From positions 2 through 64,001 of the forward strand of contig JBKOVG010000065.1 in assembly GCA_046723845.1 (NCBI GenBank): 64,000 bases of DNA, read 5' to 3'. The position numbers were made by a program, and so were the translations under genes. Position 1 is the stretch's first letter. The number at the start of each line of letters is the position of its first letter. Below the pieces are notes generated by a model. It saw nothing but the letters and a program-made list of their open reading frames with translations, made no database searches and had not been told where the DNA came from. The DNA comes from Candidatus Methylomirabilota bacterium. Its GTDB lineage: Bacteria; Methylomirabilota; Methylomirabilia; Rokubacteriales; CSP1-6. Positions 1-30,842 of the stretch are shown here, piece after piece.

Positions 1-455
1 AGCTGGGCGTACATGCCCGCCGCGGAGATGCCGATACCCTGCTGGCCGCGGCTCATGCGCAGCCGGTGGAACTTCGAGCCGTAGAGGAGCTTGGCGAAGA
101 TGGGCGGGATCTGCTGGCGGACGATGCCGGGGCCGTTGTCGCTCACCGTCACGCGGAAGCGCGTGGCCTGGCTGGCCGGGGGCGGCGCCGCGCCGTTGTT
201 GGGGGCGACCTCGAGGGTGACCACCACGTCCGGCAAGATGCCCGCCTCCTCGGCGGCATCGAGGGCGTTGTCCACCGCTTCCTTCACGCAGGTGAGGAGC
301 GCCTTGCGCGGGTTGTCGAAGCCGAGGAGATGGCGGTTCTTGGTGAAGAACTCGGAGACGGAGATCTCGCGCTGGCGCGCGCCCATCTCGGCGGCGGAGA
401 CGGAGGCTTTCGGCGCGGCGGCGGACGCGGGAACCTTGGCGAGAGCGGTGGCCAT
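1..455 (-). CDS. top6B: DNA topoisomerase VI subunit B, N-terminal part (gene runs off window start)
   Basis: Own translation of minus strand from ATG (comp. 453-455): MATALAKVP..REISVSEFFTKNRHLLGFDNPRKALLTCVKEAVDNALDA..VSDNGPGI..SRGQQGIGISAAGMYAQ. This is a GHKL/Bergerat ATPase N-terminus typical of Top6B. GGGAG SD upstream. Absent from ORF track because there is no stop in the window. Confidence 0.8.
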   Translation of the reverse strand, partial: MATALAKVPASAAAPKASVSAAEMGARQREISVSEFFTKNRHLLGFDNPRKALLTCVKEAVDNALDAAEEAGILPDVVVTLEVAPNNGAAPPPASQATRFRVTVSDNGPGIVRQQIPPIFAKLLYGSKFHRLRMSRGQQGIGISAAGMYAQ

Positions 456-498
456 CTCCCTACGTGATACCAAATCTCAGCGCCCTCGCCCACTTTTT

Positions 499-1302
499 AT
501 GTGGCGAGGCGGCGCGCCATCGATGGCCGGCCGTCGCCGCCCGTGGCACAATCAGCGGGTGAGCAGCTCCACCCGTCTCGCCGTGCTCAGCCCGCTCGTC
601 GCCCTCGGGGCCGTCGCGGCCTACGTCCTCCTCTTCCGCGTCGCCCTCGTTCGCAACCACCCCGAGGCCTACGTGGTGGCCTTCGCGGTGGCCGCCGCGC
701 TGGCCGTGCTCGCCCTCGTGCGCGCCAGGCACCGGCGCTGGCCCGCCTGGATCGCCCTCGCTTTCTCGGGTCTCCTCCTGATCGGCGGCGCCTGGTTCAA
801 TTTCGTGGCCGCGCGTGTGCCCGACACGCCCACCGCGCTGCGGGTGGGCGAGCGCGCCCCCGACTTCACGCTAGCCGACGCCAGCGGCCGTCCCGTCGCC
901 CTCGCCGACTACCGCGGCAAGAAGCCCGTCGTCCTCGTCTTCTACCGCGGCTACTGGTGACCCTTCTGCATGGCCGAGCTCCAAGGGCTTGGAGCGCAGC
1001 TATCGGAAGCCGAGAAGGCCGGGGTGGAGATCGTGGCCATCTCGCCCGATCCGAACGAGCAGAGCCAGAAGGTGGCCGAGGGTCTCCGCCTCGGCTACCG
1101 GTTCCTCTCCGACGGCCATCTGGCCGTGGCGCGGCGCTATGGGCTGATCCACGCGCGCGGCGGACCGGACGGCCAGGACGTGCCGCGCCCCGCCACCGTG
1201 GTGCTGGATCGCGACGGTGTGGTGCGCTGGTTCTCCGTGAGCCACACCTTCCAGGTGCGCCCCGACCCGGGCGACGTCCTGCGCGCCGTGCGCGCGCTCT
1301 AG
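499..1302 (+). CDS. Membrane-anchored AhpC/TSA (peroxiredoxin-like) protein with in-frame TGA (958-960) at the catalytic Cys position; candidate selenoprotein (start uncertain: 499, 523 or GTG 559)
   Basis: ORFs 91..960 and 970..1302 are in the same frame. Joined they read ..KKPVVLVFYRGYW[TGA]PFCMAELQGL..VEIVAISPD.., i.e. the redoxin motif FYRGxW-C-PFC with TGA replacing Cys. Three TM helices lie upstream. Hairpin 978-995 lies downstream. Confidence 0.65.
976..997 (+). other. Candidate bacterial SECIS hairpin
   Basis: GCTCCAA(978-984)/TTGGAGC(989-995) 7-bp stem with G-rich apical loop GGGC. The loop lies 25-28 nt 3' of the TGA at 958-960. Confidence 0.5.
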
Positions 1303-2083: not shown

Positions 2084-2629
2084 ATGCCGGGCAGCGATGG
2101 GAAGCCCGCGGCAGCGGATCTGGGTCCCGAGGCCCTGGCCTATGCGGATGCCCTGCACAACCTCGCCCGCTATCTCACGGGCACCGACACCGACGCGGAA
2201 GACCTGGTGCAGGAGACATACAGCCGTGCCCTCGGCAGCGCCGCGCAGTTCACCCCCGGCACGAATCTCAAGGCCTGGCTCTTCCGGATCCTCCGCAACG
2301 CCTTCATCAGCCAGTACCGGCGCCAGCGCGGCAATCCCACGGTGGGCGGCCTCGACACCGTGACGCCCATCGGGTACGGTCCGGCCGACGTGGGCCGGGC
2401 CAAGGACGAGGTGGAGCTCGACCGGCTGCGCAAGGTCATGGCAGAGGAGATCGAGCGCGCGCTCATGATGCTCGCGGAGGACGCGCGCACGGTGATCCTC
2501 CTCGACCTCGAGGGTCTCACGGAGGTGGAGGTCGCGCACGTGCTCGGCTGCGCGGTGGGCACGGTGAAGTCGCGGCTTTCCCGCGCGCGCGCCGCCCTGC
2601 GCTCGCTCCTCAAAGACTGGAAACGATAG
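2084..2629 (+). CDS. ECF (sigma-70 family) RNA polymerase sigma factor
   Basis: DAEDLVQETYSRAL..WLFRILRNAFISQYRR (region 2) and LTEVEVAHVLGCAVGTVKSRLSRAR (region 4 HTH). Start ATG 2084 is in frame with ORF 1730..2629. Confidence 0.85.
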   Translation: MPGSDGKPAAADLGPEALAYADALHNLARYLTGTDTDAEDLVQETYSRALGSAAQFTPGTNLKAWLFRILRNAFISQYRRQRGNPTVGGLDTVTPIGYGPADVGRAKDEVELDRLRKVMAEEIERALMMLAEDARTVILLDLEGLTEVEVAHVLGCAVGTVKSRLSRARAALRSLLKDWKR

Positions 2630-2637
2630 GACAGGGT

Positions 2638-3429
2638 ATGGACTGCCGCGACGTGCGCGATCACCTGCTCGACTTCCAGCGCGGCCAGCTCGGGGGCGAC
2701 GTCGCCACCGAGGTGCGCCGTCACATCGACGGCTGCGTCGAGTGCGCGCAGGCCGAGCTGGTGGAGCGGGAGCTGACCCTCCTCCTCGAGCGCCGCACCC
2801 CCCAGTATCCGGCGCCCATCGGGCTCAAGCGGAGGCTCATCGCGCGGTGGCCCACGGTGCTCGCGCCGCCTTCGCCCACGAGCCCGCGCCCCTGGCCGCG
2901 CGTGCTCCTCCCCGCGGCCCTCGCCGCCGCCGCGCTCCTCCTCCTCGTGCCCGTGGCGTTCCAGCTCCTCTCTCCGCATGGCCAGGCCAGCGCCGTCATG
3001 GTGAGCGAGGCCGTCAACGACCACGTGCGGCTGCTCCAGAGCCAGCGTCCGCTCGAGGTGGAGAGCAGCGGCATCCACCAGGTCATCCCGTGGTTCACGG
3101 GCAAGCTCGACTTCGCTCCTGGCATCCGCTTCGCCGGCGACGAGGAGTTCCCCCTCCGCGGGGGCGCCGTCGGCTACTTCGTGGACCGCAAGGCGGCCAC
3201 CTTCGTGTTCGGCCGCCGGCTCCACACCATCTCCCTCTTCGTCTTCAAGGCCGAGGGGCTGCCGTGGCCCACGAGCAGCCTGGAGCGTGTCGGCCGCGAG
3301 GAGATCTATCGCAGCTCGGCGCGGGGCTTCAACGTGCTGCTGTGGCGCGAGGGCGAGCTCGGCTACGCCCTCGTCTCCGACGTGAACGCGCAGGACCTGA
3401 AGCTGCTCGCCGCGAAGCTCTCTCCCTAG
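2638..3429 (+). CDS. Anti-sigma factor (zf-HC2 type, single TM)
   Basis: N-terminal C..H..x3..C..C pattern (MDCRDVRDHLL..HIDGCVECAQ), central hydrophobic helix, directly downstream of the ECF sigma gene. Confidence 0.75.
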   Translation: MDCRDVRDHLLDFQRGQLGGDVATEVRRHIDGCVECAQAELVERELTLLLERRTPQYPAPIGLKRRLIARWPTVLAPPSPTSPRPWPRVLLPAALAAAALLLLVPVAFQLLSPHGQASAVMVSEAVNDHVRLLQSQRPLEVESSGIHQVIPWFTGKLDFAPGIRFAGDEEFPLRGGAVGYFVDRKAATFVFGRRLHTISLFVFKAEGLPWPTSSLERVGREEIYRSSARGFNVLLWREGELGYALVSDVNAQDLKLLAAKLSP

Positions 3430-3518: not shown

Positions 3519-5231
3519 ATGACGGTGCGCGTCAAGATCCTCGCCATCTCGGCTGTCCTCCTGCTGCTCTTCGCCGTCGTGCTCGTCAGCTCCGTGATCA
3601 TGCAGGAGCACAGCAGCCGGAAGGTGGCGGCCATCGTCGACTATCATTTGCCGCTCGCCGCCACCATCGCGGACCTCGACGTGGCCACCGACAAGTACGA
3701 GCTGATCGTCGAGCGGCTCCTGCGCGAGCCGGATCGGCAGAGCGTCACCGCCGACGCCCAGCGCGGTGAGCTCGAGAAGACTCGCGAGCGCATCGCCGCC
3801 GACTTCGACAGCGCGGCCGCCCTCCTCGGCCGCGCTCTCACTGATCCGCGCACCGACGGGAACGACCGCCTGGTCTTCGCCAAGGTCCAGCGCTCCCTCG
3901 AGTACCTGAAGCGCTACGAGGAGCCGTTCCTCGCCCTTGGCGGCCAGGTCGAGGCCACCTACAACGCGGGCAAGCTCGCCCAGGCCACCACGCTGTCGCG
4001 TCAGTTCGAGCGGTACGAGCAGGCCTTCGGTCCGGACATGGCCGCGATGCGTGCGGAGCTGGTCGCCCTGGCCCGCGTGTCCACCGAGCACACCTACGAG
4101 CAGCAGACGCGCATCCTCCGCCTCAACGTGATCCTCTTCGCGGTGGCGGTGGTGATCGGCCTCGGCCTGAGCGCCATGGGCGCCCGGCGGCTCGTGCAGG
4201 CGCTCTGGCGCGTGGTGGACGGGGCCAAGGCCATCGAGGCGGGGGACCTCGCCGTGAAGGTGCTGGTGACGAGCCGCGACGAGATCGGACAGCTCGCCGA
4301 GGCCTTCAATCGCATGGCGGAGGAGCTCAGGACCAAGGAGCGGATCAAGGACACCTTCGGCAAGTACGTCGATCCGCGCGTGGTCGCCCAGCTCATCGAC
4401 ACCTCGAAGGACATGGACCAGGCGGAGCGGCGCGTCGCCACCATCCTGTTCTCCGACCTCAAGGGCTTCACGGCCATCAGCGAGCAGCTCACCGCCACCG
4501 CCATGGTCCGCCTCCTCAATCGCTACTTCACGGTGGTCGCCGACCAGATCCGTGCCCACAACGGCGTCCTCGAGAAGTACATCGGTGATGCCGTGATGGC
4601 CTTCTGGGCCGCCCCCTTCTCTACGGGCGATGATCACGCGGCTTCCGCCTGCCTCGCCGCCCTCGCCCATCGCGACGCGGTGGCCGCCCTGCGCCCGGAG
4701 CTGCCGGACCTCCTCGGGCTCCGCCGCAACATTCCCGAGCTCACCGTGCGCATGGGGTTGGCCACGGGCGAGGTGGTGGTGGGCACGGTGGGCGCGCCCA
4801 CCGCCAAGTCCTTCGCGGCCATCGGCGACATCACCAACCTCGCCTCGCGGCTCGAGGGCGTGAACAAGGTCTACGGTACGAGCGTGATCCTCGCCGAAGA
4901 GACCTACCGGCTCGCCCAGGCCGTCGTCGAGGCGCGCGAGCTCGACATGGTGGTGGTGGCGGGGAAGAGCGAGCCCGTGCGGATCTACGAGCTGCTCGGC
5001 CGCGTGCACGAGGTGGACGCGGCGCTGCTCGAGCTGCGCGAGCTCTACGTGGAGGGTCTGCAGGCCTATCGCGGGCGCGACTGGAGCGGCGCGGGGCGAT
5101 GCTTCGCGAAGTGCCTCGAGCTCAGGTCGGGCGACGGTCCCGCGGCCGCGCTGCGCGATCGGAGCGGGATGTTCGCCGCGACTCCCCCGCCTCCCGACTG
5201 GGACGGCGTGTGGCATCTCCTCGAGAAGTGA
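3519..5231 (+). CDS. Membrane HAMP-domain adenylate/guanylate cyclase (class III)
   Basis: N-terminal TM, second TM plus HAMP (DEIGQLAEAFNRMAEEL), cyclase core (ATILFSDLKGFTAISE..YIGDAVMAFW..GLATGEVVVGTVG). Confidence 0.85.
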   Translation: MTVRVKILAISAVLLLLFAVVLVSSVIMQEHSSRKVAAIVDYHLPLAATIADLDVATDKYELIVERLLREPDRQSVTADAQRGELEKTRERIAADFDSAAALLGRALTDPRTDGNDRLVFAKVQRSLEYLKRYEEPFLALGGQVEATYNAGKLAQATTLSRQFERYEQAFGPDMAAMRAELVALARVSTEHTYEQQTRILRLNVILFAVAVVIGLGLSAMGARRLVQALWRVVDGAKAIEAGDLAVKVLVTSRDEIGQLAEAFNRMAEELRTKERIKDTFGKYVDPRVVAQLIDTSKDMDQAERRVATILFSDLKGFTAISEQLTATAMVRLLNRYFTVVADQIRAHNGVLEKYIGDAVMAFWAAPFSTGDDHAASACLAALAHRDAVAALRPELPDLLGLRRNIPELTVRMGLATGEVVVGTVGAPTAKSFAAIGDITNLASRLEGVNKVYGTSVILAEETYRLAQAVVEARELDMVVVAGKSEPVRIYELLGRVHEVDAALLELRELYVEGLQAYRGRDWSGAGRCFAKCLELRSGDGPAAALRDRSGMFAATPPPPDWDGVWHLLEK

Positions 5232-17000: not shown

Positions 17001-18029
17001 ATGCGCATGGTGGCGCTCGTGCTTGGTATTCTCGCGCTCGTGAGCTCTGATGCGGCCGAAGCGCAGACGGTTTCCGTGGCCGAGGTGGGTAGCTTCCACG
17101 TGGGCGGCCGCGCCGTCTCGCTCACCGGCCTGCCCACCCGCGACGTCGTGTTCACGGCGGGATCGGCGCCCATCAAGGTCGATCCCAACGGCGACTTCGA
17201 GGTGGAGCAGATGTACGTGAGCTATACCAAGCTCGCCCAGCCCAAGGCCCGCTATCCCCTGCTCCTCTGGCACGGCGGCGGTCTCACCGGCGTGACCTGG
17301 GAGACCAAGCCCGATGGCAAGCCGGGCTGGCAGCTCTTCTTCCTGCGCGCCGGGCACGACGTGTACGTCTCCGACGCGGTGGAGCGGGGCCGCGCTTCCT
17401 GGGCGCGCTATCCCGAGATCTTCACCTCCGAGCCGCTCTTCCGCACCAAGAAGCAGGCGTGGGAGGAGTTCCGCATCGGCGCCGTCGGCAGCTACCGGCT
17501 CAATCCCGCGGAGCGGGTGGCCCTGCCCGGCCAGCTCTTCCCCGTCGACGCCTTCGATCAGTTCATGAAGCAGGCGGTGCCGCGCTGGGCGACCACCGAC
17601 GCGCAGATCCAGGCCGCCTACAACCAGCTCGTGCAGAAGGTCTGCCCCTGCGTGCTCATCACGCACAGCCAGGGCGGCAACTTCGGCTTCAACGCCGCCC
17701 TCGCCGCGCCGGACAAGGTCAAGGCGCTCATCTCCATCGAGCCCACGGGCACGCCCAAGCCCGAGCTGACGGCGGGCAAGCTGAAGGCGGTGCCGCACCT
17801 GATCGTGTGGGGCGACTACATCGACCAGAGCGATGTCTGGAAGCGGTTCCAGCCCGCCTCCCAGCGCTATGCGGAGGCGCTGCGCGCCGACGGCGGGGTC
17901 GCCGACTGGTGGGAGCTGCCCAAGCTCGGCATCACGGGCAACGGCCACATGATGATGATGGACAAGAACTCGGACCAGGTCGCCCAGCTCATTCAGCGCT
18001 GGGTGACCGACAAGGGGCTGATGCAGTAG
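17001..18029 (+). CDS. Secreted alpha/beta hydrolase (esterase-like)
   Basis: Signal peptide MRMVALVLGILALVSSDAAEA; LLLWHGGG..; ITHSQGG nucleophile motif. Confidence 0.7.
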   Translation: MRMVALVLGILALVSSDAAEAQTVSVAEVGSFHVGGRAVSLTGLPTRDVVFTAGSAPIKVDPNGDFEVEQMYVSYTKLAQPKARYPLLLWHGGGLTGVTWETKPDGKPGWQLFFLRAGHDVYVSDAVERGRASWARYPEIFTSEPLFRTKKQAWEEFRIGAVGSYRLNPAERVALPGQLFPVDAFDQFMKQAVPRWATTDAQIQAAYNQLVQKVCPCVLITHSQGGNFGFNAALAAPDKVKALISIEPTGTPKPELTAGKLKAVPHLIVWGDYIDQSDVWKRFQPASQRYAEALRADGGVADWWELPKLGITGNGHMMMMDKNSDQVAQLIQRWVTDKGLMQ

Positions 18030-18055
18030 GGACGCCGCCCCGGGAGGAGACCACG

Positions 18056-18688
18056 ATGGCCAAGGGCACGCTGATCGCGGCGATGCGCATCGCGCACGTG
18101 GCCGAGGACGAGTTCCATGACTGGTACGACACCGAGCACCTGCCCGAGCGCAAGCGCGTGCCGGGCTTCCTCGTGTGCGAGCGCTGGCTCGGCGCCGAGG
18201 ACGCCCGCGTCTCGGTCGCCACCTACGACCTCGACAGCGTGGCCGTGCTCCAGGGCCCGGCCTACCGGGCCATCGGCGGCGAGAACCTCTCGCCGTGGTC
18301 CAAGCGCGTCACGGCGAGGGTGGAGCGGCTGATGCGCTTCGAGGGCGATCAGATCCTGCCCGGGGACCAGCTCCCGCCGTCGCGCGCGGGCGGCCTCCTC
18401 CTGAACGCCATGAACATCGCCCCCGAGCTGGAGGCGGAGTTCAACGAGTGGTACGACAAGGAGCACATCCCGGCGCTGGCCGCGGTGCCCGGCGTCCTCT
18501 GCGCGCGCCGCTTCCGCGGGAGCAGCGGCAACCGGAAGTACGTCGCGCTCTATCATCTCGCCGAGCCCGCGGTGGTGGAGTCGGCGGAGTGGAAGACGGC
18601 GCGCCAGAGCGACTGGACGAGCCGACTCCAGCCTCACTTTCGGGATCACTTGCGGCTCGTGCTGCGGCGCTATCGCCGCAGCGGCTGA
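18056..18688 (+). CDS. Hypothetical protein with internal two-fold repeat
   Basis: EDEFHDWYDTEHLPERKRVPGF.. repeated as EAEFNEWYDKEHIPALAAVPGV..; GGGAGGAG SD. Confidence 0.6.
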   Translation: MAKGTLIAAMRIAHVAEDEFHDWYDTEHLPERKRVPGFLVCERWLGAEDARVSVATYDLDSVAVLQGPAYRAIGGENLSPWSKRVTARVERLMRFEGDQILPGDQLPPSRAGGLLLNAMNIAPELEAEFNEWYDKEHIPALAAVPGVLCARRFRGSSGNRKYVALYHLAEPAVVESAEWKTARQSDWTSRLQPHFRDHLRLVLRRYRRSG

Positions 18689-18720
18689 TTGCCGAAGCCT
18701 GCAACTTCATCGGCTTCACG

Positions 18721-18816
18721 GGCGTGCCGAGCTACGGCGAGTAAGTTTCACGGGGTCGACGCAGCGAAGAACCGCAGGTAGTTGCCGCCCACGATCCTGG
18801 CGGTCTCCGTCGGCGT
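18721..18816. repeat. Direct repeat copy A (~96 bp, ~90 % identical to 35089-35183)
   Basis: Hand alignment: ggcgtgccgaGctacgGcgagTaagtttcacggg(g)tcgacgc..ccgcaggtagttgccgccca.gatc.tggcggtctccg.cggcgt; 10 differences including 1 indel. Confidence 0.85.
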
Positions 18817-18820
18817 ATCA
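18748..18820 (-). pseudogene. Remnant of the last ~23 codons of a membrane dipeptidase (M19) gene
   Basis: Minus strand reads DTPTETARIVGGNYLRFFAASTP*. Compare the C-terminus of the intact gene 35100..36227: TPAETAKILGGNYLRIFAASTRETSSS*. Confidence 0.7.
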
Positions 18821-18845
18821 CAGGTGAGACAGCCCGGGCGGCTCC

Positions 18846-18874
18846 TTGCCTTCTCCGCACCTGCCCGCTATAGT
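18846..18874 (+). promoter_or_regulatory. Sigma-70-like promoter TTGCCT-17-TATAGT pointing into the cassette array (Pc-like candidate)
   Basis: TTGCCT 18846-18851, exactly 17 nt, TATAGT 18869-18874; 142 nt upstream of the first cassette boundary. Confidence 0.35.
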
Positions 18875-19015
18875 CCCCGCACGTCCCCGCCAGAAGGAGG
18901 GGTGCCACTGGCCCTTGTCCGCTCGATCGCTTCGATTGTCTACGCGCCGGGATATTCATCCTCTTTCACGACAAGCGCCATCCCCTCCGGATGGGCGGGT
19001 TTCAAGATACTTATA

Positions 19016-19024
19016 GTTAGCGAG
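19016..19024 (+). other. Left-most cassette junction (GTTAGCGAG); core site of an attI or degenerate attC
   Basis: Exact reverse complement of CTCGCTAAC (20189-20197), the R'' end of the first attC. Confidence 0.6.
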
Positions 19025-19161
19025 CAGGACTGACGATCACGGCGACTGAACGAAGGTGGGACGTGGATCAAGATGGGCCAAACCGCAAATTCCGGTTTGT
19101 GTATCTTCCGCCCTCGTTTGAGCGGACAGGATGTCCTGTGCTGAGCCGTAGGGGAAAGGAC

Positions 19162-20130
19162 ATGCGGCGGCGCGATTTCATCAGGATTGTTGGGGGTGTG
19201 GCGGCGGTGTGGCCGCTCGTCGCGCGCGGGGAGCAAGCTCGGTTCGTTCGAATCGGCGCGCTCTACATAGGAATCGCGGACGCGGATTCGTTCAAGAAGG
19301 AACTCCGGGAAGGACTGCGCGAGCTCGGCTATGTGGAGGGGCAAAACATCGCATTCGAGTTCCGTTCCGCAGAAGGAAAGCTGGATCAACTTCCTCGGCT
19401 CGCCGCCGAGCTCGTCCGGCTGAAGGTCGACGTGATCGTGGCGCTCTACGTCCCCTGCGCGCTGGCCGCGAAACAAGCGACCCGCGAGATCCCCATCGTC
19501 ATTATCGCGGGTGACCCTGTCGAGACCGGGATCGTGCCCAGCCTGGCTCATCCAGGCGGAAACATCACCGGCGTGTCTCTGATGGCCTCCGCATTGGGTG
19601 GAAAGAGTGTCGAATTGTTCCGCGATATGCTGCCGTCCGCGCGGCGTGTGGGCGTCTTGGGCCACTCCACGAATCCGGTCTTCGCGAAAGCCATGCTCGA
19701 CGAGGTCCTGCGGGCCGGTGGACCGACCGGCATAAGAATACAGCCGGTCGTCATGATCCGCGGACCCGAAGAGGCCGACACCGCTTTTGCGACGATGGTG
19801 AGAGAGCGAGCCGATGCCGCCGTCGTCCAGGGCAGCTTGGCGTTCAAATCGCTGACCGATATGGCCATCAAGTACCGAGTGCCGACGGCCTCGACCACGC
19901 GCTCGTTTGCTGATATCGGAGGCCTGATGGCATTCGGGGCCGACGGGCCCGCCGCGGTTCGGCACGGCGCCACGTTCGTGCATCGGATCTTGGAGGGGAA
20001 GCAGCCGAAGGACATACCTATCGAGCAGCCCACCAAATTCGAGCTGGCCATCAATCTCAAGACTGCCAAGGCAATCGGCCTCAGAATTCCCCAAGCGTTT
20101 CTGCTGCGCGCCGACGCAATCCTCGAATGA
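19162..20130 (+). CDS. ABC-transporter substrate-binding protein (PF04392-like), cassette 1
   Basis: MRRRDFIRIVGGVAAVWPLVARG signal; ..GLRELGYVEGQNIAFEFRSAEGK..LKVDVIVA..IPIV..PGGNITG..EQPTKFELAINLKTAKAIGL.. Confidence 0.85.
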   Translation: MRRRDFIRIVGGVAAVWPLVARGEQARFVRIGALYIGIADADSFKKELREGLRELGYVEGQNIAFEFRSAEGKLDQLPRLAAELVRLKVDVIVALYVPCALAAKQATREIPIVIIAGDPVETGIVPSLAHPGGNITGVSLMASALGGKSVELFRDMLPSARRVGVLGHSTNPVFAKAMLDEVLRAGGPTGIRIQPVVMIRGPEEADTAFATMVRERADAAVVQGSLAFKSLTDMAIKYRVPTASTTRSFADIGGLMAFGADGPAAVRHGATFVHRILEGKQPKDIPIEQPTKFELAINLKTAKAIGLRIPQAFLLRADAILE

Positions 20131-20190
20131 AGCAGCAATTTGATGCGGACTAGCCAGCGCTGCTGAGTGCCGTGTGAGACCGTGGGCTCT

Positions 20191-20250
20191 CGCTAACAAG
20201 CCGCTGGACCCGACGGCTGAGGCAGCCGCGGGTCAGCGCCGGCGTTATGC
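20191..20250 (+). repeat. attC-1 (60 bp)
   Basis: cgctAAC aagccgctggacccg...cgggtcagcgccggc GTTatgc; arms pair (GACCCG/CGGGTC, GCCG/CGGC). Confidence 0.75.
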
Positions 20251-20329
20251 GCACTGAAGGTCGTCTGCCACGGTCGCCAAGCCAGCCAAGTTGGGCGGAC
20301 ACTGACCTCCGCAGGATAGTGGCCTCACA

Positions 20330-23300
20330 ATGAAATGTCCGCGGTGCGAGCACGAAAACGAGTCCAGCGCGAAGTTCTGTGAGGAGTGCGCCGCGCCGCT
20401 CGCGCGGATGTGTGCAAACTGCGGCCGGTCACTCTCCCCGAGGGCCAAGTTTTGCCCTGAGTGCGCCCATCCGACGAGATTGGGGCCGGAGGCTTCCACG
20501 ACCTCGCGCTTCACCTCCCCGGAGGGCTACACCCCGAGGCACCTCGCCGAGAAGATCCTTACGTCCAGGAATGCGGTCGAAGGCGAACGCAAGCAGGTCA
20601 CGGTGGTGTTCGCCGATCTCAAGGGTTCGATGGAGCTGCTCGCCGACCGAGACCCCGAAGATGCCCGCAACCTCCTCGACGCGGTGCTCGAACGCATGAT
20701 GGAGGCCGTCCACCGGTACGAAGGGACGGTCAACCAGGTCATGGGCGACGGAATCATGGCGCTCTTCGGCGCGCCGCTCGCCCACGAGGACCACGCGGTG
20801 CGGGCGTGCTACGCGGCCTTGCGCATGCAGGAATCGGTGAAGCGATACGCCGAGGAGGTGCACCGGACGGCGGGCGTGTCGCTGCACATCCGGGTCGGTG
20901 TGAACTCGGGCGAGGTGGTCGTCCGCTCCATCGGCAGCGACCTCCACATGGACTACACGGCCGTCGGCCAGACGACCCACCTGGCGGCACGGCTGGAGCA
21001 GATGGCGATGCCGGGTTCGATTCTCATCTCGCCCGCGACGCTCAATCTGTCGGAAGGCTACATCATGGTGACGCGACTGGGGGAGCGCCCAGTCAAGGGC
21101 CTGGAACGGCCGATGGAGGTCTTCGAGGTCGTCGGCGCCGGGACGGCGCGCTCGCGGCTGCAGGCCACCGCCGCTCGCGGTCTCACGCGGTTCGTCGGGC
21201 GCAGCGCGGAACTGGAGCAGCTCCGCCAGGCCCTGGAGCGGGCCGGGACGGGGCATGGCCAGGTCGTGGCAGTCGTCGGCGAGCCCGGGGTCGGGAAGTC
21301 CCGCCTCTTCTGGGAGTTCACCCACTCGCATCGCACGCAGGGCTGGCTCCTCGTCGAGAGCAGCTCCGTTTCTTACGGCAAGGCGATGGCGTTTCTGCCG
21401 CTCATCGATCTCCTCCGCGCCTACTTCCAGATCGAGGGTCGCGATGACGAGCGCAAGATCAGCGAGAAGGTAACTGGAAAGCTCTTCTCCTTGGACCGCG
21501 CGCTCGAACCGTCGCTGCCCGGACTGCTGTGGCTTCTCGACGTACCAGTCGACGACCCGCAATGGCAGCGGCTCGACCCTCCGCAGCGCCGCCAGCAAAC
21601 GCTCGAGGGGATCAAGCGATTGCTGCTACGAGAGAGCCAGGTCCAGCCGCTGTTGCTGGTGTTCGAGGACCTGCACTGGATCGACGCTGAGACTCATGCC
21701 CTGCTGGACAGCGTTGTGGAGAGTCTGCCCACCGCCCGGTTGCTGCTCCTGGTGAACTACCGACCGGAATACCAGCACAGCTGGGGCAATAAGACCTACT
21801 ACCGGCAGCTCCGCGTTGACCCCCTTGCGCCCGAGAGCGCCGAGGAACTACTCGGGGGCTTGCTTGGGACCGACGCTCGCCTTCAATCCCTCAAGCGACT
21901 CTTGATCGAGCGGACCGAGGGCAATCCGTTCTTCCTCGAGGAAAGCGTCCGGACGCTTGTCGAGACGAGGGTCCTGGCGGGCGCGCGAGGCGCCTATCAC
22001 CTGGCGAGAGAAACCTCGACGCTGCAAATTCCGGCGACGGCCCAGGCGATCCTGGCTGCGCGCATCGACCGTCTCGCGCCCGAGGACAAACGGCTCCTCC
22101 AGGCCGCCTCTGTCATCGGCAAGGACACGCCCTTCACGCTCCTCCAGGCCATCGCGGAGGAGCCAGAGCAGCAACTCCGCCGGGGCCTCGCGAATCTCCA
22201 AGCCGCCGAGCTCCTCTACGAGGCGCGGCTCTTCCCGGACCTCGAGTACACATTCAAGCACGCGCTGACCCACGACGTCGCCTACGGCAGCCTGCTTCAG
22301 GAGCGACGGCGCGCGCTCCACCGCCAGATCATGGAGACCATCGAGCGGCTCCATCCCGACCGGCTGGCGGAGCACATCGAACAGCTCGCCCACCACGCCT
22401 TCCGGGGCGAGGCGTGGGACAATGCTGTCACGTACCTCCGGCAGGCTGGGGCCAAGGCCTTCGCCCGCTCGGCCAACCGGGAATCGGTGACGTATCTCGA
22501 GCAGGCCCTCAACGCCCTGGATCACCTGCCACAAGATGGCGAGACGGTCGTCCAGGCCATCGATGTTCGGATCGATCTGCGTCATGCGCTGTGGCCGCTC
22601 GGCGAGAACGGTCGGATCCTCAACTATTTGCAGAAGGCCGAAACCATGGCCGAGACGCTCGGCGACCAGGGGCGATTGGCGCGGGTTCTCTCGGCGATGG
22701 GCTATTCATTTTGGATGCTGGGCGACCATGGCCGTGTCGCGACGTCCAACGGGCGTGCCCTGGCGATCGCCACGAGCCTGGGAGACTTCGCTCTCGAGGC
22801 GGCGGCAAACTTCGCGCTCGGGCTCGCTTACCACGGCCTCGGAGACTATCGTCGCGCGACCGACCACCTCACGAGAAACGTCGGCTCGCTCCGAGGCGAG
22901 CGGATGTTCGGTCGGTTCGGAACCGCCGGCGTCACGTCGGTCCTGTCCATCATGGCGCTGGCATGGTGCAATGCCGAGCAGGGCTCTTTCGCGGAAGGCA
23001 TCGGCTTCGGGGAGGAAGCCCTTCGGACCGCCAACGCGCGAGATGACAAGCTCAGTCTCATGTTCGCCGACCTAGGTGTCGGAGACCTCTACCTCGTGCA
23101 GGGGGACCTCGTCCGGGCCATTCCGAGACTCGAGCGTGGCCTGTCGATCTGCCAGACATGGGACTTCCCATCCTGGCTTCCCTGGCTGGCTTCGCGACTG
23201 GGGGCCGCTTACGCCTTGGCCGGTCGTGTGGCCGAGGGCCTGCCGTTGTTGGAGCAGTCGGTGGAGCGAGCCGACGCCATGGGTTGGAAGGCCGACGCTT

Positions 23301-23701
23301 CACGGCTCGCCGCCAGGTTGAGCGAGGCATATCTCGGAGCTGGTCGAATTCAGGAAGCGGCAGAACTGGCCGCCCGTGCCCTCGATCTCGCGGTGGGGCA
23401 GAACGGGCGCGGTGATCAGGCCTGGGCCCTACGCCTGGGTGGCGAGATCGCTTCCGGTAGGGAGCCGGCCGACCTCGAGCAGGCCGAAGACCAGTACCGC
23501 CAAGCGCTCGCCCTCGCCGAGGAGTTGGGGATGCAGCCCCTCGCGGCGCACTGTCACCTTGGGGTCGGCAAGCTGTATCGCCGCGTGGGCAACCGCGCGA
23601 AGGCGGAAGAGCGCCTGAGGACCGTCACCGCGATGTATCGGGAGATGGAGATGGGCTTCTGGATCCAGCACGCCGAGGCAGAGATGAGGGCGCTGGGATG
23701 A
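20330..23701 (+). CDS. Double zinc-ribbon / class III adenylate cyclase / AAA(STAND) ATPase / TPR protein, cassette 2
   Basis: CPRCEHEN..CEEC..CANCG..CPEC; VTVVFADLKGSMEL..VMGDGIMALFGAP; VVAVVGEPGVGKSRL (P-loop); C-terminal TPR-like repeats; 1123 aa. Confidence 0.85.
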   Translation: MKCPRCEHENESSAKFCEECAAPLARMCANCGRSLSPRAKFCPECAHPTRLGPEASTTSRFTSPEGYTPRHLAEKILTSRNAVEGERKQVTVVFADLKGSMELLADRDPEDARNLLDAVLERMMEAVHRYEGTVNQVMGDGIMALFGAPLAHEDHAVRACYAALRMQESVKRYAEEVHRTAGVSLHIRVGVNSGEVVVRSIGSDLHMDYTAVGQTTHLAARLEQMAMPGSILISPATLNLSEGYIMVTRLGERPVKGLERPMEVFEVVGAGTARSRLQATAARGLTRFVGRSAELEQLRQALERAGTGHGQVVAVVGEPGVGKSRLFWEFTHSHRTQGWLLVESSSVSYGKAMAFLPLIDLLRAYFQIEGRDDERKISEKVTGKLFSLDRALEPSLPGLLWLLDVPVDDPQWQRLDPPQRRQQTLEGIKRLLLRESQVQPLLLVFEDLHWIDAETHALLDSVVESLPTARLLLLVNYRPEYQHSWGNKTYYRQLRVDPLAPESAEELLGGLLGTDARLQSLKRLLIERTEGNPFFLEESVRTLVETRVLAGARGAYHLARETSTLQIPATAQAILAARIDRLAPEDKRLLQAASVIGKDTPFTLLQAIAEEPEQQLRRGLANLQAAELLYEARLFPDLEYTFKHALTHDVAYGSLLQERRRALHRQIMETIERLHPDRLAEHIEQLAHHAFRGEAWDNAVTYLRQAGAKAFARSANRESVTYLEQALNALDHLPQDGETVVQAIDVRIDLRHALWPLGENGRILNYLQKAETMAETLGDQGRLARVLSAMGYSFWMLGDHGRVATSNGRALAIATSLGDFALEAAANFALGLAYHGLGDYRRATDHLTRNVGSLRGERMFGRFGTAGVTSVLSIMALAWCNAEQGSFAEGIGFGEEALRTANARDDKLSLMFADLGVGDLYLVQGDLVRAIPRLERGLSICQTWDFPSWLPWLASRLGAAYALAGRVAEGLPLLEQSVERADAMGWKADASRLAARLSEAYLGAGRIQEAAELAARALDLAVGQNGRGDQAWALRLGGEIASGREPADLEQAEDQYRQALALAEELGMQPLAAHCHLGVGKLYRRVGNRAKAEERLRTVTAMYREMEMGFWIQHAEAEMRALG

Positions 23702-23727
23702 CCGACGCGTCGCGAGAGAGCCGGGGC

Positions 23728-23799
23728 GCATAACAGCACGATGAACCTGACAGCGACTTCGCTTCGCTCAGCCGCCGCAGGTTATCGTGAGCGTTCGGC
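23728..23799 (+). repeat. attC-2 (72 bp)
   Basis: gcatAAC agcacgatgaacctg...caggttatcgtgagc GTTcggc. GCGCATAAC (23726-23734) is the exact reverse complement of GTTATGCGC (20244-20252). Confidence 0.8.
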
Positions 23800-23840
23800 G
23801 GACACTCTAGTCATGAGAGCAGGTCAGAGGATAGGCGCAG

Positions 23841-24083
23841 ATGTTCGACGCGGTGATTCAGACCGTACTCTCCCAAGGCCAGCCAAGCTCCGGCGATAAC
23901 CTGCTCGGGTTCTCGATCGATGCCGACCACTATGTGGCCGAGGGTGGCGCGCTGGTGAACGTGGACGTCCGCCGCAGCGACCGACCGGACTGCTTAATCG
24001 ATGTACGTGCGACAGTCGCCGATCACGTTCAAACCCTGCAGGATGTTGCTTTAGCGTTGCGGGGAGCATGGGTGGAATGGTGA
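23841..24083 (+). CDS. Hypothetical 80-aa ORF (cassette 3)
   Basis: ORF only; no recognisable motif; abuts the NMO fragment. Confidence 0.3.
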   Translation: MFDAVIQTVLSQGQPSSGDNLLGFSIDADHYVAEGGALVNVDVRRSDRPDCLIDVRATVADHVQTLQDVALALRGAWVEW

Positions 24084-24640
24084 TTACTCCCGCCGTTGTC
24101 GATGCTGTGCGTGCGGTCGCCCCAGGCTCGTCAGCGCCACCGGTGGTCGCGGCAGGTGGAATAGCAGACGGCCGGGGCCTCGCGGCCGCACTGATGCTCG
24201 GCGCAGAAGGTGTTCTCGTCGGCACGCCGTTCCTCGCGACCGACGAGGCACCGGTACCCTCGGCGTGGAAGTCGGCGATTTGCGCGTCGACCGAGGTTGA
24301 TACGGTCTATACGCGGGTTGCGAATCTTGTGGCGCGGCCGACTTGGGCGCCGGTCGCGCCGAGTCGCGTGCTGCGGACCGGCGCGGTTACGGCCTGGCTT
24401 GGTCGCGAGGCGGAACTCGACGCGCTCCCGCCAGCCGAGCGCGAGACGATCGCCGCGCGTTGGGTGCAGGCGCGGATGGAGGGACGCACGGACGACATGG
24501 AAGTGATTGCGGGGCAGGACTGCGGGCTGATCCACGAGATCTTTCCGGCTGCGGAGGTGGTGAGAAGGATCGTGGAGGAGGCGGAGCAAGTCCTCGGGCG
24601 GTGGTGCCCCGCCGGCCACAACGGACCGCGAAGTGCGTGA
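24068..24640 (+). pseudogene. Nitronate monooxygenase (NMO/2-nitropropane dioxygenase) C-terminal fragment
   Basis: PVVAAGGIADGRGLAAALMLGAEGVLVGTPFLATDE is the C-terminal half of the FMN TIM barrel. The N-terminal ~150 aa are absent. Confidence 0.65.
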
Positions 24641-24744
24641 CCGCGTCTGCCAGATCGCCCGCTGGATTCGACCGCCTGATCTGCCCCGCAGGACAGGAAC
24701 CAGCGGTCGTCGATCCAGGGCGTCTGGGCGGTCGTCATGAAAGC

Positions 24745-24816
24745 GCCGAACAAGGCAGTCGAGCGGCCGGCGGCTCGCATTCGCTCGGGCGCCGCCGCTC
24801 ACTGCCAGCGTTCGTC
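24745..24816 (+). repeat. attC-3 (72 bp)
   Basis: gccgAAC aaggcagtcgagcgg...ccgctcactgccagc GTTcgtc. Shares 16-nt loop ggctcgcattcgctcg with attC-11. Confidence 0.8.
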
Positions 24817-24909
24817 GCACCAGGAGACGGCAAGCAGATACCGCAGTCGATGCTACGAAGTCCCAAGCACATTTACACCAAAAGGCTAGAAGAGAGAGCG
24901 AGGCTTCCT

Positions 24910-26117
24910 ATGACCATCGGTGCGCTGATCCAAGGCCAATGCGACTCACGTTTCACAGCAGTGCGTGAGGCGTTCGCGGAGAATTTCGCAAAACGCGCAG
25001 AAGTGGGTGCCGCAGTCTCCGTTTATGTGAACGGCAAACCAGTCGTGGACCTCTGGGGCGGCTACGCCAACGCTGCCAGGACTCGGCCCTGGGAGCAGAA
25101 CACGCTTGTGAGTGTTGCGTCTACCACCAAGGGCATGGTCGCTCTTTGCGCTCACATGCTCGTCGAGCGCGGACTCCTCGATCTCGATGCGCCAGTGGCT
25201 CGCTACTGGCCAGAATTCTCGCAGGCCGACAAGGCGCAGATCCCCGTGCGCTGGCTTCTGAGCCATCGGGCTGGTTTACCAGCCATCCGACGAGATCTGC
25301 CCGCCGAGTCGCTCTACGACTGGCATGCCTTCACCGCGGCACTAGCGGAAACCTCTCCCTGGTGGACGCCGGGAAGCCAGCACGGCTATCACGCGAGGAC
25401 TTTCGGCCACCTGGTGGGTGAAGTCATTCGGCGGATCAGCGGCGCGAGCGTGGGCCAGTTCCTTCGCGCCGAAGTGGCGGGGCCGCTGGGTGCCGACTGC
25501 TTTATTGGCCTTCCGGAGGCAGAACATGCGCGGGCTGCCGAAATCCTTCCCGACCTACCACCTCTCCCTGGCGACGAGACTATATGGGACGTGATCAGGG
25601 GAGACCCATCGTCCATGGCGGCCCGCGCGTTTTCCAATCCACCAGGCGGCCCAGAGATGAGGAATACTCGAGCCTGGCGCGCGGCCGAGATTCCATCAAG
25701 CAACGGCCACACGACCGCAAGAGCCCTGGCCCGCCTCTATGGTGCGCTCGCTGATGGCGGGACGCTCGACACCGTGCACCTCCTCGACCCAGCCACGATC
25801 GATGCGGCGATCGTAGAACAATCGTCTGGCCTCGATGCGATTCTCCCGTTCGCGACGCGGTTTGGACTCGGGTTCATGCTGACGATGCCGGGCAGGAACG
25901 GACAGCCGGGGCACTCGTCCCGCCGTTCGGTCCCAATCCGCGCGCCTTCGGGCACCCGGGGGCCGGGGGCTCTATCGGCTTTGCCGACTTGGACGGCCGA
26001 CTTGGTTTTGGCTACGTGATGAACCAGTTTCAGACTGGCACGGCACGGAATCCCGATCTCCGTTGGGTCTCCCTCGTCGAGGCAGCCTATGCCTCGCTCG
26101 GCGCAAGACAGGGTTAA
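24910..26117 (+). pseudogene. Serine hydrolase (class C beta-lactamase/esterase family) with a frameshift near 25890-25925, cassette 4
   Basis: SVASTTKGM (S-x-x-K). After ..GLGFMLTMPG the conserved C-terminus PFGPNPRAFGHPGAGGSIGFADLDGRLGFGYVMNQ..* continues in another frame, ending at TAA 26115-26117. Confidence 0.7.
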
Positions 26118-26153
26118 TTCGTTTTGTCATCAAAATCCCGCATCGTGGCGGGC

Positions 26154-26226
26154 GTCGAACTTCGCGCTCCAGCGGACCAGGAGCTCGCGTTGCTCGCTCC
26201 CCGGCCGCTGAGCGTGAACGTTCGGC
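26154..26226 (+). repeat. attC-4 (73 bp)
   Basis: gtcgAAC ttcgcgctccagcgg...ccgctgagcgtgaac GTTcggc. Confidence 0.75.
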
Positions 26227-26256
26227 GGACAAGTTGAGCCAAGGCAGGAGCGAGCG

Positions 26257-27081
26257 ATGACCGATCAAGGCCAGTGGCAGGTTGCTGGAAACGCGGCCGA
26301 GATTTACGAGCGTGCCTTGGTCCCCGCCGTGTTCGCAGCCTGGGCGTCGCTTGTCATCGATTTGGCCGACCCCCGACCCGGCGCACGTGTCCTGGACGTC
26401 GCCTGCGGCACTGGTGTGGTTGCCCGAACCATCGCGCAGCGGGTCGGACCTACCGGTGAGGTGGTCGGTCTCAATCTGAATCCTGGGATGCTGGCCATCG
26501 CGGCATCTATCACCTCCAACGAACCGGCGACGACCGCGCGGATAACCTGGCAAGAAGCCAGCGCGACGAAGATGCCGCTGGCGGACGCGGCCTTCGATAT
26601 TGTGTACTGTCAGTTGGGGCTCCAGTTCTTTCCCGACCGGCCCGTGGCGTTGCGGGAAATGTATCGCGTCATGGTTCCGGGCGGCCGCCTGGGTCTCATG
26701 GTATGGCGGGATATTGAGCGTAGTCCCGGGTTCGCCGTCTTGGCTGCCGCTCTCGCGCGACATGTAAGTACCGAGGCGGCGGGCATCATGCGTGCTCCAT
26801 TCGGCCTCGCCGACGCTGACGAGTTGCGTGGGCTCATTGCCACGGCCGGCTTCCGCGACATCACGGTCCGGTCAATCCCGGGGACTGTTCGTTTTCCATC
26901 GGTCGTACGCTTCGTGCAGGACTATGCGGCCGGCTCACCACTTGCCGGCCACGTGGCGAAAGTCTCGGACCAAGCCCGTGCGGCACTCGTCAGCGAGGTG
27001 GATGCCGCGCTGCAATCTTATCTCGTGGCGGGCGCGCTGACGTTTCCGATTGAGGCTCACCTGGCGAGCGCCTGGAGGTGA
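26257..27081 (+). CDS. Class I SAM-dependent methyltransferase, cassette 5
   Basis: VLDVACGTGVVARTIAQRVGPTGEVVGLNLNPGML; ..FDIVYCQLGLQFF. Confidence 0.8.
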   Translation: MTDQGQWQVAGNAAEIYERALVPAVFAAWASLVIDLADPRPGARVLDVACGTGVVARTIAQRVGPTGEVVGLNLNPGMLAIAASITSNEPATTARITWQEASATKMPLADAAFDIVYCQLGLQFFPDRPVALREMYRVMVPGGRLGLMVWRDIERSPGFAVLAAALARHVSTEAAGIMRAPFGLADADELRGLIATAGFRDITVRSIPGTVRFPSVVRFVQDYAAGSPLAGHVAKVSDQARAALVSEVDAALQSYLVAGALTFPIEAHLASAWR

Positions 27082-27117
27082 CGTGTTCATCCTCCATAAC
27101 CCCGAGCTTGGCGAGCC

Positions 27118-27175
27118 GCCGAACAACAGGCTCGAGCGGACCAACTATGCCGGCCGCTCAGCCTGAGCGTTCGGC
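27118..27175 (+). repeat. attC-5 (58 bp)
   Basis: gccgAAC aacaggctcgagcgg accaactatgccgg ccgctcagcctgagc GTTcggc. Confidence 0.8.
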
Positions 27176-27197
27176 GCACCGGGGAAGCGATCAACAG

Positions 27198-28244
27198 TTG
27201 ACTTGCCGAAATCGTTGGCGTCGCGCCCGAAAATCGGCCACGTCGAGAGTCGACGTCTCCGTCCTCATTTTCTTGTTTCTATTCGTTGCTTCAGGCCTCG
27301 TTTCCATTGTCCTCATAGGTGCGCCAGCTCGTGCGCAGGAGCACCCGACGGGAAAGGTCTACCGGATTGGGTTCCTACGCGCGGGGCAGCCGCCCGAGAC
27401 CTACCTCGACGGCTTTCGCCAAGGCCTACGCGAGCGGGGATATGTCTATGGCCAAAATGTGGTCGTGGAATTCCGAGCCACCGACGGCAGCGTCGATCAG
27501 CTTCCGCAGTTCGCCGAAGAGCTGGTGCGCTTGAAGGTCGACGTCATCCTGGCTTCGGCCGCGTCAGCGGCTCAGGCAGCCGGCAGAGTGACCACGTCGG
27601 TGCCAATCGTCTTTGTGGGCGTCGTGGACCCGGTCGGGCTCGGGCTCGTCCCGAGCCTGGGACACCCGGGTGGCAACATCACGGGACTAACCACTACCTC
27701 TGAGGATTTCGCCGGCAAGCGCCTGGAGCTGCTCAGGGCACTCGTCCCCAACCTCAAGCGAGTTGGAGTTCTCTGGCATCCGGCCAACCCGACCAACCCC
27801 ATCCAACTCAAGGGGGCGCAGGTCGCAGCGCGCACGCTCGGCGTGCGGCTTGAGCCGGTGTCGGTCCAGGGGCCGAATGATTTTGACTCTGTCGGCAAGA
27901 CTGTGCGTGGTACCGATGGCCTGCTCTTTCTGGAGAGTCCACTTTTCACGACACATCGCGCTCGCCTCGCAGAGTTGGCGGCCAAAAGCCGGCTGCCCGC
28001 GATCTATGGCCAAAGGGAGTACGTTGAGGTCGGAGGCCTCATGTCATATGGCACGCACTTTCACGACTTGTACAGACGTGCAGCTCTCTACGTGGACAAG
28101 ATCCTGAAGGGCGCGAAGGCGGCTGATCTCCCCGTCGAGCAACCCACGAAGTTCGAGTTCGTGATCAACTTGAAAACCGCCAGGGCTCTCAGTCTGGCGA
28201 TCCCGCAATCGCTCCTGCTGCGCGCCGATCAGGTGATCGAATGA
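27198..28244 (+). CDS. ABC-transporter substrate-binding protein (PF04392-like), cassette 6 (start uncertain; TTG 27198 is the first start inside the cassette)
   Basis: ..GFRQGLRERGYVYGQNVVVEFRATDGS..LKVDVILA..VPIVF..HPGGNITG..EQPTKFEFVINLKTARALSL..ADQVIE*. The ORF-track 5' extension crosses attC-5. Confidence 0.8.
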   Translation: MTCRNRWRRARKSATSRVDVSVLIFLFLFVASGLVSIVLIGAPARAQEHPTGKVYRIGFLRAGQPPETYLDGFRQGLRERGYVYGQNVVVEFRATDGSVDQLPQFAEELVRLKVDVILASAASAAQAAGRVTTSVPIVFVGVVDPVGLGLVPSLGHPGGNITGLTTTSEDFAGKRLELLRALVPNLKRVGVLWHPANPTNPIQLKGAQVAARTLGVRLEPVSVQGPNDFDSVGKTVRGTDGLLFLESPLFTTHRARLAELAAKSRLPAIYGQREYVEVGGLMSYGTHFHDLYRRAALYVDKILKGAKAADLPVEQPTKFEFVINLKTARALSLAIPQSLLLRADQVIE

Positions 28245-28332
28245 TCGCTCGGCCGGCTTTGGTTCTCCTGCCGAGTGGCCTTCTCAGCGTCTTCGTGGCA
28301 GGTGACGGCGCAGCTTGCCAAGCGATGGGGGC

Positions 28333-28395
28333 GTCGAACGTTTCAGTGGAGCGGACCCGCCCAGAGCGGCGGGCCGCTCACCATGAGCGTTGGGC
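28333..28395 (+). repeat. attC-6 (63 bp)
   Basis: gtcgAAC gtttcagtggagcgg acccgcccagagcggcggg ccgctcaccatgagc GTTgggc. Confidence 0.8.
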
Positions 28396-28475
28396 GCACC
28401 TGATCGCCTGACATGCTGGCGACTCCAGAGGCGAGGAGGTCCACGGCTTATGGGCAACACTACGGTGGTGGCGGC

Positions 28476-29468: not shown

Positions 29469-29477
29469 TCGCTGGCC

Positions 29478-29549
29478 GCCCAACATCACGCTGCAACGGT
29501 CCGGGTGCTCACGATGCTCGCACCCGGCCGCTGAGCGTGCGCGTTCGGC
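29478..29549 (+). repeat. attC-7 (72 bp)
   Basis: gcccAAC atcacgctgcaacggtccgggtg...cacccggccgctgagcgtgcgc GTTcggc. Confidence 0.8.
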
Positions 29550-29588
29550 GCCTTGAGCCGAGCGGACGATCGGGAGTAAGGTAAGGCA

Positions 29589-29801
29589 ATGGCTGAGGCG
29601 ATCGTAACCTGCTCGCCGGATATCCTGAGCGGCACGCCCGTATTCGCTGGAACGCGAGTTCCGGTCCAAGCGCTCATCGACTACCTCGAGGGCGGCGAGA
29701 CGATCGGCGACTTCCTCACGGGGTTTCCGACCGTCAGGCGGGAGCAGGTCGTGGCCTTCCTCGAGGAGGCCACGGCGCGAATGACTCCCAAGGCGTCGTG
29801 A
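29589..29801 (+). CDS. DUF433-family antitoxin-like protein, cassette 8
   Basis: CSPDILSGTPVFAGTRVPVQALIDYLEGGETIGDFLTGFPTV; GTGA start/stop overlap with the next gene. Confidence 0.8.
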   Translation: MAEAIVTCSPDILSGTPVFAGTRVPVQALIDYLEGGETIGDFLTGFPTVRREQVVAFLEEATARMTPKAS

Positions 29802-30170: not shown

Positions 30171-30285
30171 GGACAAGAGAACACGCACCTGGCTCTCGGG
30201 TTTCGTTTTGCGGGCCGAGGTGTCCAGTGTAAGGCTCAACCGTATTCCACGAGAGGCGGCTCTGGCAACCTGAGAGGAGGACGAC

Positions 30286-30827: not shown

Positions 30828-30842
30828 GTACAGGGGATTTTT

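Follow-up and report, generated by a model that had tools for sequence, protein, structure and literature searches.

Selenoproteins of the Prx-like UxxC type were reportedly first predicted by Kryukov and Gladyshev in 2004, and a Geobacter protein (WP_010940744.1) is the exemplar of this family. The UxxC "Prx-like thiol:disulfide oxidoreductase" of pfam00578 is a catalogued selenoprotein family in the literature, and the first interpretation of the locus described here had drawn on established Sec/Cys pairs in Prx-like oxidoreductases of other bacteria. The GOS survey, which uses the name "Prx-like 1", counted 225 members with selenocysteine (Sec) and 2,740 Cys homologues. For the bacterial SECIS element (bSECIS) the published model has an apical loop of 3-9 nt on an upper stem of 4-16 bp, a G among the first two loop positions (usually G[G/U]N), a distance of 16-37 nt between UGA and loop, and an MFE not above -7.5 kcal/mol (PMC13188914).

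The locus was found in a stretch of 64,000 nt from a Candidatus Methylomirabilota bacterium (contig JBKOVG010000065.1), which is referred to as the window. Two ORFs on the forward strand, 91..960 and 970..1302, share one frame and are separated by the TGA at 958-960. This TGA almost certainly encodes Sec, as part of the active site of a single redox enzyme with a membrane anchor, whose gene is wrongly split by callers. We consider it very probable that the explanation holds as a whole, with 523-1302 being one gene for a selenoprotein of 259 residues and Sec146 being specified by way of the hairpin at 978-995.

The reading frame and its redox domain

The coding sequence and the features of its redox domain are as follows.

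523-1302, forward strand: complete read-through coding sequence, 259 codons including the putative Sec146, stop codon TAG at 1300-1302, alternative start GTG 559
844-1230, forward strand: AhpC/TSA domain (thioredoxin fold, Prx-like), residues 108-236, assigned by PF00578 and by PDB matches on either side of the TGA
958-960, forward strand: in-frame TGA, read as the codon of Sec146, position 1 of the redox motif U-P-F-C
967-969, forward strand: TGC for Cys149, second residue of UxxC (TGC in 79 of 79 sequences)
1186-1188, forward strand: codon of Arg222, aligned with the conserved catalytic Arg of peroxiredoxins (VAKRA versus VPRPA for A. pernix BCP; invariant in alignment A1)

Translation across 958-960 yields ...VVLVFYRGYW-TGA-PFCMAELQGL...AISPD..., in agreement with the original prediction, which had joined the two ORFs in this way. 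The letters around the TGA read ...KKPVVLVFYRGYW-*-PFCMAELQGLGAQLSEAEKAGVEIVAISPDPNE... up to the final TAG, and the peptide over residue 146 of the read-through product is GYW-U-PFCMAELQGLGAQLSEAEK. In all assemblies examined, standard gene callers break the gene up into two ORFs, and public databases contain more than 50 protein clusters that are N-terminal fragments whose last residues are exactly ...FYRGYW.

The gene had initially been drawn from position 499, and this start had to be abandoned: ATG 499 is not conserved (e.g. in the orthologue L001). ATG 523 is kept in close relatives, whose database clusters open with MAGR..., and is the likely start. The other candidate, GTG 559, aligns with the Met start of remoter orthologues. 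As these seem to begin at the Met opposite GTG 559, either of the two may be the true start. A P-W-[HQ]-N motif is encoded between them (523-558, forward strand), 5' of the first transmembrane helix, and occurs in many orthologues but not in all.

With Cys in place of the stop, the product of 259 residues matches the Pfam family AhpC/TSA (PF00578) with E = 6e-33 and 113.9 bits, the cutoff being 26. Positions 1-123 of the 124 profile positions are covered, so that a single domain straddles the TGA at residue 146. Matches in the PDB to BCP and AhpE proteins (E about 1e-14 to 1e-15) are likewise aligned on both sides of the TGA.

Alignment to the solved structures places Sec146 opposite the Ser/Thr of the peroxiredoxin motif PxxxT/SxxC, which reads FFPAAFSPVC in BCP from A. 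pernix (2cx3) and FFPLAFTGIC in AhpE from M. tuberculosis (1xvw). Cys149 lies opposite the peroxidatic Cys of both. The motif encoded here, R-G-Y-W-U-P-F-C, has Arg for the Pro and Sec for the Thr of PxxxTxxC. Of the canonical signature, which combines PxxxT/SxxC with the peroxidatic Cys and the catalytic Arg, the Cys and the Arg are kept and the remainder is not. The stop codon had been assigned to the site of the peroxidatic or CxxC cysteine. The second part of this assignment stands: by alignment, Sec146 comes first in a UxxC motif like that of thioredoxins. The first does not, the peroxidatic position being that of Cys149.

None of the NCBIfam models reached its cutoff on the read-through protein, all peroxiredoxin equivalogs scoring below, with BCP and PrxU far under theirs. 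The scores of five models were:

BCP: 58.6 bits, cutoff 140
SelL-related redox protein (NF040769): 52.4 bits, cutoff 120
ResA: 49.9 bits, cutoff 170
TlpA: 30.3 bits, cutoff 230
DsbE: 18.6 bits, cutoff 123

The hairpin downstream of the TGA

Shortly after the TGA, the coding sequence can form a hairpin.

978-995, forward strand: SECIS-type hairpin within the coding sequence, stem 978-984/989-995 (GCUCCAA/UUGGAGC), loop 985-988 (GGGC)

Folding and the measured spacing agree with what had been described for this hairpin, namely 7 bp and a G-rich tetraloop 25-28 nt past the A of the UGA, within the range of 16-37 nt. With a loop of 4 nt (GGGC), a stem of 7 bp, a UGA-to-loop spacing of 24 nt and -9.1 kcal/mol for the isolated hairpin, it lies inside all four constraints of the bSECIS model. 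An extended lower stem (970-976 with 997-1003), as drawn by RNAfold, brings the energy to -21.3 kcal/mol. This extension is no better than in shuffled controls, and the consensus fold of the orthologues retains only the 7-bp stem.

We counted how frequently such a structure occurs by chance. Perfect hairpins of at least 7 bp with a loop starting with G are found 16-37 nt downstream of 14 of the 1423 TGA triplets in the window (1.0%), and two of these triplets (0.14%) remain when a tetraloop is required as well. The 66-nt hairpin region has a z-score of -1.2 versus shuffles. A scan of the whole window with Rfam at the gathering threshold gave no match, and a permissive scan of 930-1050 gave noise only (E of 3 or more). 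Seen in this single sequence the hairpin is only suggestive, while the comparative data put it far beyond chance.

For the comparison, 79-81 distinct orthologous DNAs were used, which have a mean pairwise nucleotide identity of 82% and a minimum of 72%. The six codons of the hairpin are GAG CTC CAA GGN CTT GGA throughout. The sole base that varies freely is the third loop base (GGT in 39 cases, GGG in 33, GGA in 7, GGC in none). Other synonymous changes are limited to two cases of GGA to GGG, which turn a U-A pair into U-G. Apart from these two changes and one break, the stem is invariant. A covariance analysis, which had been suggested as a check on the hairpin, thus detects no covariation, and it is conservation only that supports the stem.

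This conservation concerns synonymous sites. There are 95 conserved columns with four- or six-fold degenerate codons in the alignment of 164 codons, and the codon is invariant in just two of them, both located in the stem. Codons ending with A or T dominate in just three columns (CAA, CTT and GGA), and all three belong to the stem, in a gene with 68% GC. Conserved Gln codons outside the hairpin are all CAG. The frozen synonymous sites and the A/T-ending stem codons provide strong evidence that selection acts on the RNA itself.

Orthologues and the reading of the TGA

Including the gene in the window, the orthologue set has 86 members. The other 85 come from five MAGs of Methylomirabilota/Rokubacteria, which were detected in a genome scan, and from 80 metagenome contigs, mostly from soil. 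The five MAG orthologues show 71-86% amino-acid identity. The TGA is found at the same codon, within a frame that is intact on both sides, in all 86 sequences, the lowest nucleotide identity being about 72%.

More distant homologues carry Cys at this position. Two proteins from Acidobacteriota with 32-36% identity (L006 and L007) have FYRGYW-C-PFCM, with TGC or TGT at the site of the TGA, and three database proteins (P0070, P0090 and P0093) have FYRGxWCPYC. The alignment with Cys-containing relatives, which had been proposed as a check, thus reveals a classical Sec/Cys pair. Five further database entries that seemed full-length (P0010, P0029, P0046, P0058 and P0062) were rejected as Cys forms, being artefactual models in which splicing or a frameshift leaves out the region of the TGA.

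The strongest alternative to Sec is that the UGA is recoded to Cys by SECIS and SelB with an allo-tRNA of the tRNA(ReC) type, or that a near-cognate tRNA reads it, either of which would give a selenium-free full-length protein. Sequence data do not separate Sec from Cys insertion. However, a change from TGA to TGC or TGT would then be expected somewhere in 86 diverged orthologues, and not a single one was seen. Moreover, genes of the UGSC family (PF24696), a classical Sec family, are found on orthologue-bearing contigs too, with an in-frame TGA exactly at the U. Gene callers split or truncate all three of them.

L091, 18088-18600, forward strand: UGSC-family gene, ...IIGNAA-U-GSCATAC..., hairpin loop GGGC at nt 29-32
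L094, 1713-2249, reverse strand: UGSC-family gene, ...SGIGD-U-GSCSSC..., hairpin loop GUC at nt 23-25
L095, 4044-4580, reverse strand: UGSC-family gene, ...SGIGD-U-GSCSSC..., hairpin after the TGA

In loop and spacing, the first of these hairpins nearly equals that of the Prx-like gene. The window itself gave no match in a tblastn search with UGSC proteins, and no credible second selenoprotein candidate, i.e. an in-frame TGA between coding regions of high GC3, was found in it. The phylum as such is reported to be rich in selenoproteins: according to a 2026 review, one Methylomirabilota MAG is predicted to have 63 of them. In an independent study of hydrogenases, Methylomirabilota are one of the phyla that have [NiFeSe] enzymes of the Sec type, and selABCD was found in about 90% of the Sec-type genomes. 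BSepDB mentions neither Methylomirabilota nor the Prx-like family under these names. Taken together, we consider the insertion of Cys or near-cognate read-through improbable and retain Sec as the preferred reading of the TGA.

A second alternative takes the TGA as a real stop. There would then be either two genes, for a membrane protein of 145 residues and for a protein of 110 residues starting at ATG 970, or a pseudogene that arose by a change of TGC or TGT to TGA. This is exactly the split that gene callers make, and the fourth codon after the TGA is ATG, GTG or TTG in 81 of the 86 sequences. In addition, no genes of the Sec machinery came up: a tblastn search with SelA, SelB and SelD from E. 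coli against the window and about 0.4 Mb of related loci had no match, and ARAGORN detected no tRNA gene, and hence no tRNA-Sec, across the window and 28 related loci; both searches covered a tiny fraction of a genome and are uninformative.

Against a real stop, the split would fall within one AhpC/TSA domain and even inside its active-site motif, and a hairpin with frozen synonymous sites would have no role. In the five sequences that have GTC or GTA at the fourth codon, the downstream half is without a start of its own until 14-56 codons further on, which is past the second active-site Cys. Furthermore, conservation is higher past the TGA than ahead of it in nearly every orthologue (93% versus 76% in L033). 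This stronger purifying selection downstream, on top of the frame and TGA being kept in all orthologues, is the opposite of the pattern expected for a genuine stop or a pseudogene. It seems very improbable that the TGA is a real stop.

A sequencing or assembly error, or genome-wide reassignment of TGA to sense, has nothing specific in its favour, one low-quality database entry (P0002) having Gly at the site, and is effectively refuted by the same TGA in 85 independent assemblies and by the TGA stops with which 22 of 31 further rough gene calls across the window end, which indicate that the codon is not reassigned genome-wide.

The central claim of the original prediction, Sec encoded by TGA in a single Prx-like gene, is thus supported from several sides: by the domain across the TGA, by the conserved TGA and the Cys homologues, by the conservation downstream, by the fit to a SECIS with frozen sites, by TGA being a normal stop elsewhere, by UGSC genes with TGA on orthologue contigs and by the reported use of Sec in Methylomirabilota. 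For the insertion of Sec itself, as for topology, substrate and electron donor, we infer from sequence what may take place. During translation the UGA at 958-960 would not end the polypeptide. The hairpin 18 nt downstream (loop GG[G/U]C) would act as a bacterial SECIS and recruit SelB with Sec-tRNA(Sec) to the ribosome, so that Sec would be inserted at residue 146. The Prx-like domain would be held on the periplasmic side by three transmembrane helices, as suggested by the positive-inside rule and by the signal peptides of Cys homologues. From the chemistry of the family, Sec146 of U146-P-F-C149 may be an exposed nucleophile that attacks a disulfide or a peroxide. A selenenylsulfide between Sec146 and Cys149 would result, which may then be re-reduced by an extracytoplasmic reductant.

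Membrane module, neighbourhood and relation to known systems

The N-terminal part of the protein has three hydrophobic helices, so that the predicted membrane anchor of the original prediction holds up. The features of this part are:

577-813, forward strand: N-terminal membrane module of three hydrophobic helices (Kyte-Doolittle segments), no known Pfam family
577-636, forward strand: predicted TM1, residues 19-38 (Kyte-Doolittle)
649-666, forward strand: VRNHPE motif (V43 R44 N45 H46 P47 E48, invariant in alignment A1) in the short TM1-TM2 loop, predicted periplasmic side
667-720, forward strand: predicted TM2, residues 49-66 (Kyte-Doolittle)
748-813, forward strand: predicted TM3, residues 76-97 (Kyte-Doolittle)

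A Pfam search with the membrane module (residues 1-105) found nothing significant. Lys and Arg residues number five in the N-terminal tail and four in the TM2-TM3 loop; the net charge is about +1 in the TM1-TM2 loop and about 0 beyond TM3. By the positive-inside rule this distribution predicts N-in and C-out, and the redox domain thus probably faces the periplasm. Cys-type homologues (L006, L007 and P0070) have cleavable signal peptides, which is consistent with an extracytoplasmic redoxin domain.

The VRNHPE motif is invariant in six aligned genome orthologues, and P0162, the most divergent member, lacks it. Used as a scan pattern, it found 316 relatives. When the membrane module was searched against 1.84 billion representative proteins, 46 matches were obtained, all of which are fragments or are cut at FYRGYW; among these 46 there is no full-length Cys-type protein with a three-helix anchor. 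It might be speculated that the module with its VRNHPE loop is more than an anchor, namely a new membrane redox partner domain (e.g. to the quinone pool or a membrane substrate), which would define a distinct, obligately Sec-dependent Methylomirabilota subfamily without Cys counterpart. We regard this as rather unlikely.

In one metagenome orthologue, the called protein of 272 aa (P0064) carries a DoxX_2-like membrane domain (PF13564), in the same frame, ahead of the three-helix module. Either the two are truly fused or the start was called too far upstream; a real fusion would hint at a link to membrane redox proteins of the DoxX type.

The genes next to the Prx-like gene are shared by close relatives only. 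Topo VI B lies upstream, and downstream there are a SAM methyltransferase and a pair of ECF sigma and anti-sigma genes; no functional partner can thus be inferred. No CcdA/DsbD or cytochrome-maturation genes were found near the Sec gene at the loci examined. The gene at 3-455 (reverse strand), divergent from the Prx-like gene, opens with a GHKL ATPase domain. In the orthologous contig L091 (1-2712, reverse strand) it is present as a full topoisomerase VI subunit B (HATPase_c and Topo-VIb_trans), with subunit A (TP6A_N/Toprim) following. This pair represents a bacterial operon for Topo VI, which occurs mainly in archaea and eukaryotes.

Several other genes in the window were noted upon its annotation. 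A HAMP-cyclase gene (adenylate/guanylate; 3519-5231, forward strand) lies right after the ECF sigma/anti-sigma pair (about 2084-3429). A second adenylate/guanylate cyclase gene (20330-23701, forward strand) codes for 1123 aa with double zinc ribbon, cyclase, AAA_16 and TPR domains. The region from about 18000 to 36000, above all 27078-33836 (forward strand), has a GC content of 0.62-0.66, compared to about 0.70 elsewhere. It contains four tandem paralogous genes for substrate-binding proteins of ABC transporters (PF04392), a gene with beta-lactamase fold and two methyltransferase genes. This region may be an acquired or fast-evolving island. Further genes represent context unrelated to Sec, all on the reverse strand: a PqiA/PqiB pair with three MlaD domains (46000-48885), the large subunit of a molybdopterin-binding hydroxylase (57014-59410) and an ankyrin-repeat protein of 522 aa (61850-63415).

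The split gene is above all an annotation problem, with more than 50 truncated clusters being public and no curated NCBIfam model capturing the gene. Its recognition would give the Prx-like UxxC selenoproteins a further member that is anchored in the membrane and probably periplasmic. It also strengthens the evidence for an extensive use of selenium by Methylomirabilota/Rokubacteria from soil, as a modest addition to the selenoproteome. With Sec apparently kept throughout and no Cys revertant among 86 sequences, the gene is a clean case for why Sec is retained. No new mechanism is revealed, and to a specialist the finding will be unsurprising.

The hairpin can be compared to the SECIS of fdhF from E. 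coli, which is also located in the coding sequence soon after the UGA (codon 140). The apical tetraloop of fdhF, GGUC, is identical to the loop in 39 of 79 orthologues, with the window having GGGC. When the U of the UGA is counted as position 1, the fdhF loop is at nt 22-25, whereas it is at nt 28-31 in the Prx-like orthologues and thus 6 nt, or two codons, further out. The stem sequence is unrelated to that of fdhF, and no equivalent of the bulged U has been established.

At the protein level, canonical peroxiredoxins (BCP/PrxQ/AhpE) share the fold, the Cys at the peroxidatic position (Cys149) and the catalytic Arg (Arg222). In Sec-type peroxiredoxins (PxxxTxxU), Sec replaces the peroxidatic Cys, whereas the putative Sec is located three residues upstream in the protein described here. 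ResA, TlpA and DsbE/CcmG have a similar architecture, in which an N-terminal anchor precedes an extracytoplasmic domain of thioredoxin fold that bears a motif of the W-C-x-x-C type; in our case this arrangement is predicted. Their sequence similarity to the protein is weak, with scores well under the family cutoffs, and they have one helix instead of three.

The closest relatives are the Prx-like thiol:disulfide oxidoreductase selenoproteins (pfam00578, UxxC/UxxU). Common to both are the AhpC/TSA fold, Sec as the first residue of UxxC, abundant CxxC homologues, a SECIS hairpin within the coding sequence shortly after the UGA, and a function that is predicted only. The gene has what defines membership in this family: the pfam00578 domain, W-TGA-P-F-C in the window and the 85 orthologues, and the Sec/Cys pair. 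It differs by its N-terminal module of three helices, which belongs to no known family, and by its distribution, as the clade has been seen only in Methylomirabilota/Rokubacteria and in soil metagenomes. We consider the gene to be a putative membrane-anchored, clade-specific addition to an already known predicted selenoprotein family, with a SECIS that appears to be conventional.
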